Source: Escherichia coli
GTDB lineage: Bacteria > Pseudomonadota > Gammaproteobacteria > Enterobacterales > Enterobacteriaceae
NCBI RefSeq assembly: GCF_003334355.1
Contig: NZ_QOWP01000028.1
Reading direction: 5' to 3' (one strand)
Length of the DNA: 53,280 bases
Shown here: piece after piece, positions 3,502 through 8,700 of the stretch
Layout of the letters: each line of letters opens with the position of its first letter
Position numbering within the stretch: position 1 is the stretch's first letter
Program-made: the position numbers and the translations under genes
The notes under the pieces: model-generated
Told to the model about the DNA's origin: nothing
What the model saw: only the letters and a program-made list of their open reading frames with translations
Database searches by the model: none

Positions 3502-4161
3502 TTACAGCGGGCTTAAGGTAATTTCTACACGGCGGTTTTGCGCCTTACCTTCTGCGGTGCTGTTGCTGGCGATTGGGTTAGCCGGGCCAAGGCCCTGAGT
3601 ACGGATGCGGCTGGCGTCCACGCCCTGGGTGATCAACGCGCTGGCAACGGAATCCGCACGCTGCTGGGAGAGACGCATGTTCAGGTCGTGACCCCCCGTG
3701 CTGTCGGTATAACCAATCACGTTAACCGCCGTTTTCGGATACTCTTTCAGCACCATTGCCACGCCGGTCAGGGTGTTAGCGCCTGCCGGTTTCAGGGTCG
3801 CGCTGCTGCTGTCGAAGGTCACATTGTTCGGCATATTGAGGATAATGTTATCCCCGCTGCGGGTTACGCTAACACCAGTGCCGCGCATTTTGTCACGCAG
3901 CTTCGCTTCCTGCACATCCATGTAATAACCCACGCCGCCGCCCAGAGCTGCGCCTGCTGCTGCGCCAATCAGCGCGCCTTTACCGCGATCTTTCTTCGAA
4001 GAAGAGAGCGCACCAATACCCGCGCCCACGAGAGAGCCCAGACCTGCGCCGATAGCAGATTTGCCTGCTTCGCGTTCGCCGGTGTAAGGGTTAGTTGTGC
4101 AGCCAGATACCGCCAGAGCGCCACTCACTACGGCGGCAATAAGATAAACACGTTTCTTCAT
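3502..4161 (-). CDS. yiaD: OmpA-family outer-membrane lipoprotein YiaD
   Basis: 219 aa; lipobox (VSGC), Gly-rich region, C-terminal OmpA-like peptidoglycan-binding domain (…NRRVEITL…). Confidence 0.9.
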   Translation of the reverse strand: MKKRVYLIAAVVSGALAVSGCTTNPYTGEREAGKSAIGAGLGSLVGAGIGALSSSKKDRGKGALIGAAAGAALGGGVGYYMDVQEAKLRDKMRGTGVSVTRSGDNIILNMPNNVTFDSSSATLKPAGANTLTGVAMVLKEYPKTAVNVIGYTDSTGGHDLNMRLSQQRADSVASALITQGVDASRIRTQGLGPANPIASNSTAEGKAQNRRVEITLSPL

Positions 4162-4313
4162 TGTTAATCCTTAATAACCTTTTTATTCTTTGCCACGGGT
4201 TCCGTGGCGGGAGATTATGCCGCGTGAACATGAAGATTATTCCTGGGAATACTCGGAAATTTGTAAGTAATATTTAACTGCTCAATACATCTAACCTTTC
4301 AGGAGTCTTCGGT

Positions 4314-6647
4314 TTGGCCAACTCATCCTCACGATATTCCGTTCTGACTGCCGCCCACTGGGGGCCCATGCTGGTTGAAACCGACGGCGAAACCGTGTTT
4401 AGCTCGCGTGGCGCGTTAGCCACAGGAATGGAAAACTCCTTGCAGAGCGCGGTTCGCGACCAGGTTCACAGCAATACGCGGGTACGATTTCCAATGGTGC
4501 GCAAAGGCTTTCTCGCGTCACCGGAAAACCCGCAAGGCATTCGTGGGCAGGATGAATTTGTTCGCGTGAGTTGGGATGAGGCGCTGGATCTTATTCACCA
4601 ACAACATAAACGCATTCGTGAGGCTTATGGTCCGGCATCGATTTTTGCTGGTTCCTACGGCTGGCGTTCAAACGGCGTGCTGCATAAGGCCTCGACATTA
4701 TTACAACGCTATATGGCGCTGGCAGGCGGTTATACCGGGCATCTGGGGGATTATTCGACCGGCGCGGCACAGGCGATCATGCCGTATGTCGTGGGTGGTA
4801 GCGAAGTTTATCAACAGCAGACCAGTTGGCCGCTGGTGCTGGAACATAGCGATGTCGTGGTGCTGTGGAGTGCTAATCCACTCAATACGCTGAAAATTGC
4901 GTGGAATGCATCCGATGAGCAGGGGCTTTCTTACTTTTCTGCACTGCGTGACAGTGGGAAAAAGCTGATCTGCATTGATCCAATGCGATCGGAAACCGTC
5001 GATTTCTTTGGCGATAAAATGGAGTGGGTGGCACCGCACATGGGCACCGATGTTGCGCTGATGCTGGGGATCGCCCATACGCTGGTGGAAAATGGTTGGC
5101 ACGACGAAGCGTTTCTGGCGCGTTGCACCACAGGTTATGCCGTCTTCGCCTCTTATTTGCTGGGCGAGAGTGACGGAATAGCGAAAACCGCCGAATGGGC
5201 AGCAGAGATTTGTGGTGTTGGCGCAGCGAAAATCCGCGAGCTGGCGGCTATTTTCCACCAAAATACCACCATGCTGATGGCAGGCTGGGGAATGCAGCGC
5301 CAACAGTTTGGTGAGCAAAAACACTGGATGATCGTCACGCTGGCAGCAATGTTGGGGCAAATCGGCACACCCGGCGGCGGTTTTGGTCTTTCTTACCATT
5401 TTGCCAATGGTGGTAACCCCACGCGGCGTTCTGCGGTGCTCTCTTCCATGCAGGGCAGCTTGCCGGGTGGCTGCGATGCGGTAGATAAAATCCCTGTGGC
5501 CCGCATTGTTGAAGCACTGGAAAACCCTGGTGGCGCATATCAACACAACGGTATGGACCGACATTTTCCGGATATTCGTTTTATCTGGTGGGCGGGCGGT
5601 GCCAACTTTACTCATCATCAGGATACCAACCGCCTGATCCGTGCCTGGCAAAAACCGGAGCTGGTGGTGATCTCCGAATGTTTCTGGACGGCGGCGGCGA
5701 AACACGCGGATATCGTTCTGCCTGCGACCACCTCGTTTGAGCGTAATGATCTCACCATGACCGGCGATTACAGTAATCAGCATCTGGTGCCCATGAAGCA
5801 AGTGGTGCCGCCACGCTATGAAGCGCGTAATGATTTTGATGTTTTTGCCGAGTTAAGTGAACGCTGGGAGAAGGGCGGTTATGCACGTTTTACGGAAGGA
5901 AAAAGTGAGCTGCAATGGCTGGAAACGTTTTATAACGTTGCCCGACAGCGCGGGGCAAGCCAGCAGGTTGAATTGCCGCCATTTGCTGAGTTCTGGCAAG
6001 CCAACCAGTTAATTGAGATGCCGGAAAACCCGGACAGCGAGCGGTTTATTCGCTTCGCTGATTTTTGCCGCGATCCGCAGGCGCATCCATTAAAAACCGC
6101 CAGCGGTAAGATTGAAATCTTCTCGCAGCGTATTGCCGATTACGCTTATCCGGATTGCCCGGGGCATCCAATGTGGCTGGAGCCGGACGAATGGCAGGGC
6201 AATGCCGAACCAGAACAGTTGCAGGTACTTTCTGCCCATCCGGCGCACCGCCTGCACAGCCAGCTGAATTACAGTTCTCTGCGCGAATTGTACGCGGTAG
6301 CAAACCGTGAGCCTGTCACCATTCATCCTGACGATGCTCAGGCGCGCGGCATAACCGAAGGGGATATGGTGCGGGTGTGGAACTCCCGTGGGCAGATCCT
6401 TGCCGGAGCGGTCATTAGCGAGGGAATTAAACCTGGCGTGATTTGCATTCACGAAGGGGCATGGCCGGATCTGGATTTAACCGCTGACGGTATTTGTAAA
6501 AACGGCGCAGTGAACGTGCTGACCAAAGATCTCCCCAGCTCGCGGCTGGGGAATGGCTGTGCGGGTAATACGGCGCTGGCATGGCTGGAAAAATACAACG
6601 GTCCGGAACTGACACTTACAGCGTTTGAACCACCGGCCAGCTCATAA
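4314..6647 (+). CDS. bisC: Biotin sulfoxide reductase (molybdopterin oxidoreductase, cytoplasmic)
   Basis: 777-aa product of the DMSO reductase family with no signal peptide; TTG start at 4314 preceded by AGGAG (4301-4305). Confidence 0.93.
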
Positions 6648-7056
6648 TCCAGGTGGGTAGTTGGGTTTCATCCTGCCATGCGCAATCGACAATGTGAAAA
6701 CCCTGCGCACGGTAAAAATCTATCGCCGGTTGATTTTTTTGATAAACCTCCAGCATCAGATGGGGATAGCGCTGCTGCACATACTGCATCAGCGCCTTAC
6801 CAATACCGCGTCTGACGGCCTTCGGTGCGACAAACATTGCTGCCAGAAATCGGCCTTCCATAATGCTGACAAAACCGAGAAGCTTACCGTCCTCTTCCCA
6901 GACCCAGTTTTGCGCATTGGCAAGATAGGCATCCCGCACCAGCGGAATGCAGTCACGCCAGTAATTCGCTTTTATAAAGGGATGCCCCCAGGTTGTACTT
7001 TCCAGCCACAGTTCGAGGATCGCGGGGAGTTCTGAACGTTGCGCTTCCCGAATCAT
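6616..7056 (-). CDS. yiaC: GNAT-family N-acetyltransferase YiaC
   Basis: 146-aa product with acetyl-CoA binding motif (…RRGIGKALM…); its 3' end overlaps the bisC 3' end by 32 bp on the opposite strand. Confidence 0.9.
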
Positions 7057-7616
7057 GGTTTATTTCCCGGATAGCAACAGCAGCCAACCACATGATCATT
7101 CACCAGCCCACATGCCTGCATAAAGGAGTAACAGATTGTGGTGCCGACAAACTTAAAACCACGTTTTTTCAGTGCCTTAGATAGGGCGTCGGAGGCGGAC
7201 GTAGATGTGGGAATTTCGCTCAACGTTGTGGCTTGTGTCACCTGTGGCTGATGATTTACAAACGACCAGACAAAGTCGGCAAACGGTTCGCCGTTCTGTT
7301 CCATTTGCAGGTACGCCCGCGCATTACCAATAATTGCCTGAATTTTCCCTCGATGGCGGATAATCCCGGCGTCCTGTACCAGTCTTTCGACATCCTCTTC
7401 CTGCATTGCGGCAACCTTCACCGGATCGAACTGATGAAAGCAGGCGCGATAGTTTTCGCGTTTTTTGAGGACGGTGATCCACGATAACCCAGCCTGCTGC
7501 CCTTCAAGGCAGATCATTTCGAACAGTTTTTTACTGTCAGTTTCAGGCACGCCCCACTCATTATCATGGTAGGCAATATAAAGCGGGTCCTGACTCACCC
7601 AGCCGCAACGTTCCAT
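7053..7616 (-). CDS. tag: DNA-3-methyladenine glycosylase I
   Basis: 187-aa product MERCGWVSQDPLYIAYHDNEWGVPE…; start ATG at 7614-7616 verified. Stop overlaps the yiaC start (ATGA), so the two are probably co-transcribed. Confidence 0.95.
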   Translation of the reverse strand: MERCGWVSQDPLYIAYHDNEWGVPETDSKKLFEMICLEGQQAGLSWITVLKKRENYRACFHQFDPVKVAAMQEEDVERLVQDAGIIRHRGKIQAIIGNARAYLQMEQNGEPFADFVWSFVNHQPQVTQATTLSEIPTSTSASDALSKALKKRGFKFVGTTICYSFMQACGLVNDHVVGCCCYPGNKP

Positions 7617-7773
7617 ACTTTCCCTCGCTATGTACCCGATCGTAAAAATTTCAGCCGCTTTTCTTGACGCATCGGTGAAAAAGTCAATATTTAATACAGG
7701 GCTACTATGCCCGATATCCTTCATACAATGACAATAATATTGCCGAATTCGGCTCTTCCCTGGAGTCGTGTTA

Positions 7774-8472
7774 ATGATCATAAAAAAAAGCGGTGGTCGC
7801 TGGCAGCTAAGCCTGCTGGCGAGCGTGGTAATCAGTGCCTTTTTTCTCAACACAGCTTACGCCTGGCAACAAGAATATATCGTTGATACGCAACCCGGAC
7901 TTTCCACAGAGCGTTACACCTGGGATAGTGATCATCAACCTGATTACAACGATATTTTGTCGCAACGTATTCAAAGTAGCCAAAGGGCGCTGGGACTGGA
8001 AGTCAATCTGGCGGAAGAAACCCCTGTGGATGTGACCAGCAGTATGAGTATGGGCTGGAATTTTCCTTTATATGAACAGGTTACAACCGGCCCGGTCGCG
8101 GCATTACATTACGATGGCACAACCACCTCGATGTATAACGAGTTTGGCGACAGTACTACCACGCTGACCGATCCGTTATGGCATGCCAGCGTGAGTACCT
8201 TAGGCTGGCGTGTTGACTCCCGGCTTGGCGATCTCCGACCCTGGGCGCAAATCAGCTATAACCAGCAATTTGGCGAGAATATCTGGAAGGCGCAATCAGG
8301 CCTGAGCCGGATGACGGCGACAAACCAGAACGGCAACTGGCTGGATGTCACCGTAGGCGCTGATATGTTGCTCAATCAAAATATTGCCGCCTATGCCGCG
8401 CTAACTCAGGCAGAAAATACCACTAATAATAGCGACTATCTGTATACGATGGGGGTTAGCGCCAGATTTTAA
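7774..8472 (+). CDS. yhjY: Small outer-membrane beta-barrel protein YhjY (autotransporter beta-domain-like)
   Basis: 232 aa; signal peptide ending AYA, alternating hydrophobic beta-strand pattern, C-terminal Phe (…GVSARF). Confidence 0.85.
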   Translation: MIIKKSGGRWQLSLLASVVISAFFLNTAYAWQQEYIVDTQPGLSTERYTWDSDHQPDYNDILSQRIQSSQRALGLEVNLAEETPVDVTSSMSMGWNFPLYEQVTTGPVAALHYDGTTTSMYNEFGDSTTTLTDPLWHASVSTLGWRVDSRLGDLRPWAQISYNQQFGENIWKAQSGLSRMTATNQNGNWLDVTVGADMLLNQNIAAYAALTQAENTTNNSDYLYTMGVSARF

Positions 8473-8586
8473 CGTAACAGTCACAATTGAAACCATTAAA
8501 TAACAATAGTTGTGGCGATAGTGGGTGCTAACTTACCAAATAATAAATTTGGTGAATAATTGTCGCGTCATTCATTCCTGAACTAA

Positions 8587-8617
8587 GGCATTTCATTCCG
8601 TTCTGATGGCATTTCAT
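8587..8617 (+). promoter_or_regulatory. YpdB (LytTR response regulator) binding site in the yhjX promoter
   Basis: Two exact copies of GGCATTTCAT (8587-8596 and 8608-8617) separated by an 11-bp spacer, about 85 bp upstream of the yhjX ATG; matches the published YpdB motif. Confidence 0.65.
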
Positions 8618-8700
8618 GCCGTTTTTCCCCAGGCATAAAGTGCACTTCGTTATGGTTGTCGGCAGAGATTTTTCCTTTTTATTACTGCAGGAATACTGCC

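Follow-up and report, generated by a model that had tools for sequence, protein, structure and literature searches.

The yhjY locus

The window analyzed here, a stretch of 53,280 nucleotides of Escherichia coli DNA, carries a chromosomal segment with the gene order bisC-yiaC-tag/yhjY-yhjX-eptB. The yhjY coding sequence (positions 7774 to 8472, plus strand; defined by its open reading frame and the RefSeq annotation) runs from an ATG codon at 7774 to a TAA codon at 8470 to 8472 and comprises 232 codons plus the stop. An alternative in-frame GTG start at 7768 would extend the protein to 234 amino acids (aa). The open reading frame (ORF) is 100% identical to the RefSeq-annotated yhjY, located between tag and yhjX, and its product is named [quoted passage not shown] in RefSeq. 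The divergent neighbor tag (7053 to 7616, minus strand), identified by translation and annotation as the gene for DNA-3-methyladenine glycosylase I, served as the syntenic anchor. A 2-kb query spanning the yhjY region matched 5423 of the 5426 complete E. coli genomes; most of its length is present in 5422. The ORF is unbroken in all 81 Enterobacteriaceae species examined (81/81; more than 15 genera), with lengths of 226 to 237 aa. Shortened yhjY alleles of 146 to 176 aa are common in Shigella and in some E. coli clusters.

The original prediction described YhjY as a protein with a cleavable signal peptide, an alternating-hydrophobic strand pattern, and a C-terminal Phe, and each of these features was recovered. 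The signal peptide (residues 1 to 30; positions 7774 to 7863, plus strand), called by reading the translated sequence and not with a dedicated predictor, has the n, h, and c regions of a Sec signal peptide such as type Va autotransporters carry: a positively charged n-region (MIIKKSGGR), a hydrophobic core (WQLSLLASVVISAFFL), and a predicted cleavage motif, A-Y-A/W, with the cut after residue 30. Strong period-2 alternation of hydrophobicity was detected in six 9-residue windows within residues 91 to 232 and in none within residues 31 to 70. The protein ends with YTMGVSARF, its last residue being Phe, and the C-terminal strand (LYTMGVSARF; positions 8440 to 8469, plus strand) resembles the beta-signals recognized by the BAM complex. 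Among 31 family members, no variation occurs at G227 and F232 and very little at Y224, S229, and A230. On established knowledge, we take this strand to be a BAM beta-signal. YhjY has the generic set of outer-membrane barrel features, namely, a signal peptide, amphipathic antiparallel strands, and a C-terminal aromatic beta-signal.

YhjY corresponds to the two ends of a GDSL-esterase autotransporter

A Pfam scan of the 31 family members gave no match to any family besides Autotransporter, and Lipase_GDSL was not among the matches. The match to the autotransporter beta-domain is significant and partial. Residues 88 to 209 of YhjY correspond to positions 119 to 253 of the 255-position PF03797 model (E = 1e-11), and residues 88 to 232 correspond to positions 285 to 432 of the 432-position TIGR01414 model (NCBIfam). 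Because only part of each model is covered, YhjY holds just the C-terminal half of an autotransporter barrel. The linker helix is missing, as is the initial 46% of the Pfam beta-domain model.

An exhaustive HMMER search for relatives returned short proteins of 209 to 240 aa and a few long ones of about 660 aa. GDSL-esterase autotransporters of 662 to 665 aa are encoded at the tag locus of Serratia, Winslowiella, and Duffyella. One of the long proteins from the search, P0135 (665 aa), contains a full Lipase_GDSL domain (residues 35 to 348) and a complete Autotransporter domain (residues 396 to 643), and it has a homologue of solved structure in the esterase autotransporter EstA (PDB 3KVN). BLASTP aligned YhjY with P0135 in two collinear matches: residues 57 to 232 with 486 to 665 (39% identity, E = 1e-40) and residues 1 to 66 with 1 to 69 (35% identity, E = 1e-6). 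The N-terminal match makes the signal peptide of YhjY homologous to that of the long autotransporter.

The C-terminal match was placed more precisely by comparing the profile alignments A4 and A6 with hhalign, which equated the barrel part of YhjY with residues 513 to 665 of P0135 (probability 100%, E = 3e-44). In the strand pattern of the long-form alignment, these residues make up strands 6 to 12 of 12. The barrel-derived part of YhjY (residues 88 to 232; positions 8035 to 8469, plus strand) is thus homologous to beta6 to beta12, the last seven strands of a 12-stranded barrel, and a complete 12-stranded barrel in the sense of a full PF03797 or TIGR01414 domain is absent.

These alignments bear on the view, taken in the original prediction, that YhjY is an autotransporter beta-domain without its passenger. 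Descent from an autotransporter and the absence of a passenger are both supported by the homology and the domain scans. A complete 12-stranded beta-domain whose passenger was simply deleted would agree with the RefSeq name and with autotransporter barrels being the only Pfam and NCBIfam families matched, and such forms do exist in relatives (P0196, 330 aa; P0203, 370 aa). However, the matches to both models begin well inside them (at 119 of 255 and 285 of 432), so that only about the last 7 of the 12 strands are kept. The domain takes up 248 to 270 residues in P0135 (396 to 665), plus a linker of about 45 residues, compared with about 145 homologous residues in YhjY, and residues 31 to 69 of YhjY are homologous to the passenger N terminus, not to the barrel. 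On domain coverage, we regard a complete beta-domain as refuted. P0196 and P0203, which are related to the long forms of Xenorhabdus and Pantoea ananatis, respectively, resemble YhjY in having kept the signal peptide and in being GDSL autotransporter derivatives that lost their enzyme domain. As read from their sequences, they retain the linker and a C-terminal region of about 270 residues, of which YhjY has barely half.

Nor was the passenger lost cleanly, as its first 40 or so residues persist, fused to the signal peptide. This remnant of the esterase N terminus (residues 31 to 69, WQQEYIVDTQPGLSTERYTWDSDHQPDYNDILSQRIQSS; positions 7864 to 7980, plus strand), detected by BLASTP and hhalign, is all that is left of a type Va passenger domain. 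Its link to the lipase N terminus was assessed with hhalign against alignments of the long forms: a profile of the remnant without the signal peptide (A2) matched residues 30 to 69 of P0135 in the alignment of long autotransporters (A3) with a probability of 88.7% (E = 2.6e-6). Searched against a large protein collection, the same profile returned 197 candidates, which were short YhjY fragments only, with no full-length proteins among them. At GDSL block I, the FGDSLSD of the long form is replaced by IVDTQPG in YhjY (family consensus, I-V-x-D-x-x-S-N), so that the G-D-S with the nucleophilic Ser that defines block I of the SGNH/GDSL family (PF00657) is gone. The blocks that carry Gly, Asn, and the catalytic-triad Asp-x-x-His (II, III, and V) are lacking as well, and the counterpart of P0135 residues 70 to 512 is absent. 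The type Va linker helix (P0135 residues 349 to 395) has no counterpart either; the helix predicted at residues 58 to 70 of YhjY stems from the esterase N terminus and not from the linker.

Between the two homologous parts lies a junction segment (residues 70 to 87; positions 7981 to 8034, plus strand), the least conserved part of the mature protein, which may hold a short eighth strand at residues 74 to 78. For the 18 to 21 residues of the junction, hhalign detected no homologous stretch anywhere in the long forms (probability, 0.1%). Specific assignments of residues 66 to 92 to beta5, to the region past passenger residue 70, or to the DAPxQV motif preceding the linker were likewise unsupported, at the same probability of 0.1%. 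The borders of the deletion are bracketed between P0135 residues 69 and 513. The long form contains a pair of D-Y-D-D-I motifs (residues 61 to 65 and 486 to 490), but recombination between them is unsupported as the route of the deletion. An 8-bp identity, GACGATAT, occurs at both motif sites in the Winslowiella-type contig L003, where chance alone would give about 0.3 matches of this kind. Since the family consensus ILAERI following the motif resembles ILAEKI of the N-terminal copy, the junction lies downstream of the D-Y-D-D-I motif.

Long and short forms share one chromosomal position

The short-form gene adjoins tag in 81 of 81 Enterobacteriaceae loci, with tag divergent upstream at a distance of 142 to 271 bp; in Cronobacter, too, the short form lies beside tag. 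The original prediction had suggested looking for longer orthologues with passengers; at the corresponding locus, Serratia, Winslowiella, and Duffyella have the 662- to 665-aa forms. In the Winslowiella-type contigs (L003 and L004), the long form stands divergent beside tag, with a spacer of 157 bp that is equal to that of E. coli. It also lies beside tag at two further loci (L091 and L092), those of Serratia liquefaciens (Yersiniaceae) and Duffyella gerundensis, so that the tag-side location of the long gene extends over Yersiniaceae and several genera of Erwiniaceae.

The tag-yhjY spacer contains invariant blocks common to long- and short-form loci, including a promoter-like site and the Shine-Dalgarno region. 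In the spacer alignment (A5, seven genera), CTTGA and ATA.TTA are invariant. The promoter-like site, TTGACG-16-AATATT (positions 7664 to 7691, plus strand), overlaps these blocks; it came from a consensus scan whose number of sites did not exceed that in shuffled sequences, and the scan is therefore weak by itself. No RNA family was found in an Rfam scan of positions 7000 to 9200. The gene downstream of the short form varies, being yhjX in E. coli and Cronobacter and a fimbrial operon in Salmonella. In Erwiniaceae, the ORF that follows the long or short gene was considered as a second YhjY-like copy; it encodes an unrelated membrane protein.

Judged by sequence and position, YhjY is the positional orthologue of an EstA/Lipase 1-type GDSL-esterase autotransporter of about 660 aa. 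The homology at both ends and the shared locus are most simply explained by the loss of about 440 codons, in frame, from within an ancestral gene for an esterase autotransporter. This deletion removed nearly the whole esterase, the pore-spanning linker helix, and strands 1 to 5. The promoter region, 5' untranslated region, signal peptide, about 40 passenger residues that no longer include the catalytic Ser motif, and the last seven strands with the terminal Phe were left in place.

Under the opposite polarity, the ancestor would have been short, and insertion or fusion would have produced the long esterase autotransporters; this is favored only by the greater number of short than of long forms in the genomes sampled. 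The outgroup family, represented by Serratia, has the long form at the same locus; distant taxa have long forms as well (Pseudomonas EstA, Xenorhabdus, and Neisseriaceae), and the short form bears a degenerate GDSL block I and a partial Pfam barrel. Neighbor-joining trees of the barrel part placed all short forms together (bootstrap values of 94% and 74%), on long branches and nested within the long forms. We give almost no credence to this polarity.

Origin by internal deletion may have happened more than once. Pantoea has a 236-aa short form at the locus that holds the long gene in Winslowiella and Duffyella, with the same downstream genes, and this protein matches P0135 at both ends, as YhjY does. 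The trees group the Pantoea protein with the other short forms; the species relationships instead suggest two independent deletions, one in Enterobacteriaceae and one in Pantoea.

The truncated gene is under purifying selection

Ratios of nonsynonymous to synonymous divergence (dN/dS) were calculated by the Nei-Gojobori method for 185 species pairs with dS between 0.1 and 1, and tag was evaluated in the same pairs. The ratio was 0.10 for the whole of yhjY, with 0.061 for the barrel part (residues 89 to 232), 0.084 for the esterase remnant (residues 31 to 70), 0.21 for the junction (residues 71 to 88), and 0.40 for the signal peptide (residues 1 to 30). The value for tag was 0.054. By this measure, purifying selection on yhjY is now comparable in strength to that on the neighboring repair gene, and this applies to every Enterobacteriaceae genus examined. 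As the fragment has been kept intact across the family of E. coli, YhjY must do something new.

The original prediction offered two descriptions, a decayed autotransporter and a stand-alone small barrel. The first is apt insofar as YhjY was derived from an autotransporter by loss, but a gene with an overall dN/dS of 0.10 and an intact ORF in every species examined is not decaying. The second holds as regards a conserved, stand-alone short protein, with orthologues uniformly short (226 to 237 aa) across the 81 species, a uniformity that the original prediction had listed among its refuting outcomes.

YhjY might yet be a nonfunctional relic, a slowly decaying pseudogene whose ORF was kept by chance or by a constraint unrelated to the protein. 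The large deletion destroyed both known activities, no function is on record for YhjY, the 146- to 176-aa alleles are frequent in Shigella and in certain E. coli clusters, and the oddly low synonymous divergence at the 5' end of yhjY hints at a constraint at the RNA level there. Such a constraint cannot account for the conservation of the barrel part, because synonymous divergence in that part is high (dS, 0.98) alongside a dN/dS of 0.06. Together with the 81 of 81 intact ORFs and the regulation of expression by RpoS and RybB (see below), this makes a relic very unlikely.

The rate of change was uneven over time. Over the last 150 residues, Erwiniaceae long forms are 69 to 77% identical to the Serratia long form and short forms only 36 to 43%, whereas short forms from different Enterobacteriaceae genera share 74 to 83% identity with each other. 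The short forms being far from Serratia yet mutually similar points to a burst of change after the deletion, followed by stasis. We infer that the burst was a reoptimization for a new structure or role.

Predicted fold and location

Structure prediction and strand counting, proposed in the original prediction as a check on the barrel, gave a low-confidence count of seven or eight strands and no barrel that was clearly closed; by homology, the count is seven. The first AlphaFold run (31 sequences, signal peptide included) gave a model with a pLDDT of 52, a helix at residues 58 to 70, and seven strands between residues 89 and 231. The best model of the second run (46 sequences, mature protein) had a pLDDT of 66, a pTM of 0.58, a helix at residues 58 to 68, and eight strands; the remaining four of its five models had pLDDT values of 43 to 48. 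The eighth strand (residues 74 to 78, or 44 to 48 of the mature protein) appeared in only one of the five models of the second run. It spans only 5 residues, has a modest beta-moment, and is weakly conserved, and in Cronobacter it is shortened. The C-terminal strand also had a low pLDDT (about 58). Foldseek searches returned only meaningless avidin-like matches for model 1 (E values of at least 0.2) and no match at an E value of 0.001 or below for model 2.

YhjY is included in a curated E. coli "OMP-ome," and a published I-TASSER model depicts it as a "deformed or broken" barrel (PMC7383365). No protein-level support for its outer-membrane location was found in the searchable literature. In the mechanism that we propose, Sec would export YhjY and the C-terminal strand would hand it to BAM. 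Its final place would be the outer membrane, where it would form a small beta-sheet or barrel and neither hydrolyze esters nor secrete a passenger. The preferred fold would be an eight-stranded barrel in which the weakly conserved junction gives a short first strand, with the conserved 40-residue remnant and its amphipathic helix (residues 58 to 70) placed on the periplasmic side.

Alternatively, the retained strands may be unable to close alone, and YhjY would either form a homo-oligomer or pair as a sheet with another outer-membrane protein, the remnant serving as a plug, a contact element, or a surface mini-passenger. The odd number of strands expected from homology, seven, speaks for this arrangement, as do the AlphaFold monomer models, which are of low confidence, mutually inconsistent, and reminiscent of segments of 12-stranded barrels. 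From the strand order, seven strands would put the segment before beta6 outside the cell, and the strong conservation of the remnant suggests a specific contact. Against it, no linked partner gene is present, the downstream neighbors differing between genera, and joining seven-strand units head to tail would require parallel strand seams. To our knowledge, such seams do not occur in bacterial outer-membrane proteins. On balance, an oligomer or a partnered sheet seems rather unlikely. The account that we prefer, comprising the origin by deletion, the retained ends, selection, export through Sec and BAM, and a small outer-membrane sheet or barrel, preferably of eight strands, is probably correct as a whole.

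Regulation of yhjY

Two studies of E. coli O157:H7 list yhjY among RpoS-dependent genes (PMC2907692) and among genes whose expression rises at a growth transition in glucose minimal medium (PMC2241611). A TRIC-seq study identified the yhjY mRNA as a new target of the small RNA (sRNA) RybB, alongside other outer-membrane-protein mRNAs (bioRxiv 10.1101/2025.09.11.675593). Using the RybB sequence of strain MG1655, we predicted with RNAduplex a pairing site for the 5' end of RybB at positions 7776 to 7798 (plus strand), which lies within codons 1 to 9 (yhjY +3 to +25). The duplex with RybB nucleotides 1 to 20 has an energy of -19.3 kcal/mol, a value matched or bettered by only 17 of 1418 windows taken from the 53-kb window and by 2 of 500 shuffled sequences. 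A CAGTGG-like core at the site was found in most orthologues, as counted by eye. According to the literature, yhjY is thus expressed in the stationary-phase, RpoS-dependent program and damped by the envelope-stress sRNA RybB, as other outer-membrane proteins are. This control fits a protein that the cell handles as an outer-membrane protein.

Relation to known proteins and implications

YhjY shares with EstA of Pseudomonas aeruginosa (3KVN), Lipase 1 of Photorhabdus and Serratia, and ApeE of Salmonella a homologous signal peptide, about 40 passenger residues, and the last seven strands with the terminal Phe, and it occupies the same chromosomal position as the GDSL-esterase autotransporter genes of Serratia, Winslowiella, and Duffyella. 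Unlike EstA, Lipase 1, and ApeE, it lacks the esterase (the block I Ser and everything past about residue 69), the linker helix, and strands 1 to 5; because these are missing, YhjY cannot be an esterase or a self-translocator. PagP and the eight-stranded barrels of the OmpX/OmpA type resemble YhjY in size (202 mature residues) and in the terminal aromatic residue, and the best AlphaFold model suggests a PagP-like order, with a helix at the N terminus ahead of about eight antiparallel strands. YhjY differs from them in having no sequence or Pfam relationship to these proteins, and its closed barrel is a candidate only. Three of the four type Va features (passenger, linker, and complete barrel) and all GDSL catalytic features are absent, and neither name fits. 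YhjY is better called a truncated descendant of the EstA/Lipase 1 family.

A domain-level link between YhjY and Photorhabdus Lipase 1 has been reported (PMC6637259), and the gene and its domain annotation were already known. The origin by internal deletion is new and well supported. The parts that we consulted of the literature naming yhjY contained no account of an internal-deletion origin, an esterase N terminus, a half barrel, selection, or function, and nothing relevant was found under b3548.

In current models, outer-membrane barrels change their strand number through the gain or loss of hairpins. Natural pairs of a barrel ancestor and its derivative identifiable at one orthologous locus are, as far as we know, rare. 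Here, the 12-stranded ancestor persists in Serratia and several Erwiniaceae genera, and the derivative with seven or eight strands is found in all Enterobacteriaceae examined. The long and short forms offer a concrete pair in which to ask how a barrel can lose five strands and persist. They also show the sequence changes that followed, namely, the burst on the short-form branch, and they raise the question of how BAM handles such a truncated substrate. We regard as doubtful the proposition that YhjY represents a selected natural "half-barrel" of seven or eight strands, either reclosed as a smaller barrel or completed by oligomerization or a partner, in which the esterase relic was recruited and truncation perhaps occurred twice. 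If truncation did arise or become fixed twice at the orthologous locus, selection for the truncated product itself would be implied.

For annotation, the widely used names "lipase" and "autotransporter beta-barrel domain-containing protein" imply activities that YhjY cannot have and are corrected by these results. For E. coli, YhjY is flagged as an uncharacterized core envelope protein under the control of RpoS and RybB.

Short forms and passenger-less barrels among GDSL autotransporter relatives

The Pantoea short form, a protein of 236 aa, is encoded at positions 4001 to 4711 of the Pantoea loci L086 and L087. This is exactly the locus occupied by the long GDSL-esterase autotransporter gene in Winslowiella and Duffyella, where a gene encoding 662 to 665 aa is retained (Winslowiella-type locus L003, 4001 to 5998; Duffyella locus L092, 3001 to 4989). 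In neighbor-joining trees, the Pantoea short form clustered with the Enterobacteriaceae short forms (bootstrap values of 74 to 94%, with long branches). The species tree instead suggests an independent deletion for the Pantoea short form; the short forms may stem from one deletion or from two. All four Pantoea-type short forms (P0259, P0173, P0179, and P0198) also carry a C-x-x-C pair (LTCPQCDF, LGCPDCDF, MNCLQCDY, and NGCLSCDS, respectively) in a long inter-strand loop equivalent to YhjY residues 115 to 138. No such pair was found in that loop in the Enterobacteriaceae short forms or in the long forms. The pair may form a loop disulfide.

True passenger-less barrels derived from GDSL autotransporters are present in other lineages. 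P0196, with 330 aa, and P0203, with 370 aa, each have their own signal peptide, the linker, and a full-length barrel region, with the esterase absent. P0196 clustered with the long form of Xenorhabdus, and P0203 clustered with that of Pantoea ananatis. The 658-aa P. ananatis "lipase" autotransporter P0157 is encoded at a locus that is not linked to tag (L088/L089, 4001 to 5977; contigs 248 kb and 259 kb in length), between genes for a SIS-domain regulator and a pseudouridine synthase. P0157 is a paralogue and distinct from the tag-linked gene.

Conserved sequence blocks upstream of yhjY

In the seven-genus alignment (A5), which runs from E. coli to Serratia, blocks of the tag-yhjY spacer were invariant across short-form and long-form loci alike. 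A promoter-like site (TTGACG-16-AATATT; window 7664 to 7691, plus strand) coincides with these blocks, and the Shine-Dalgarno region GGAGTCGT is likewise common to both types of loci in A5. The RefSeq start of yhjY is the ATG at 7774, with GGAG located 8 nt upstream. An alternative in-frame GTG start (window 7768 to 7773, plus strand) lies two codons 5' of this ATG and would give a product of 234 aa.

Possible RNA-level constraint at the yhjY 5' end

Synonymous divergence in codons 1 to 70 of yhjY (window 7774 to 7983) was far below that in the barrel part, with dS values of 0.30 for codons 1 to 30, 0.44 for codons 31 to 70, and 0.98 for the barrel part. This low divergence suggests RNA-level constraint on the 5' end, for example through sRNA pairing, translation initiation, or signals of the divergent tag promoter. 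RybB is a sigma-E-dependent sRNA. Codons 1 to 9 (window 7776 to 7798, plus strand) have near-perfect predicted complementarity to its 5' seed (-19.3 kcal/mol). A CAGTGG-like core at the 5' end was present again in most of the 81 Enterobacteriaceae orthologues (counted by eye), and it recurs while the residues encoded there differ. The predicted pairing is consistent with the listing of yhjY as a RybB target by TRIC-seq (bioRxiv 10.1101/2025.09.11.675593). At codon 21 (window 7834 to 7836), one identical synonymous change, S21S, was reported in 5 of 12 independently evolved rifampicin-resistant populations, with a fitness effect that was not measurable (preprint, bioRxiv 10.1101/2023.01.13.524028). 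The change may mark a hotspot, stem from a variant that was already present, or act at the RNA level.

Downstream context and broken alleles

The tag side of yhjY is conserved. Its downstream context is not, since a chaperone-usher fimbrial operon (Fimbrial, PapD, and Usher) follows yhjY in place of yhjX in Salmonella enterica (L002, 5211 to 8705). Shortened yhjY products of 146 to 185 aa formed large clusters (P0064, P0082, P0083, and P0086; 116 to 225 member sequences), one of which bears the name of a partial Shigella flexneri protein. Additionally, an IS1 element was found inside the 2-kb yhjY region of one E. coli strain (NZ_CP053720.1). Thus, although conserved family-wide, yhjY is lost or broken in some lineages.
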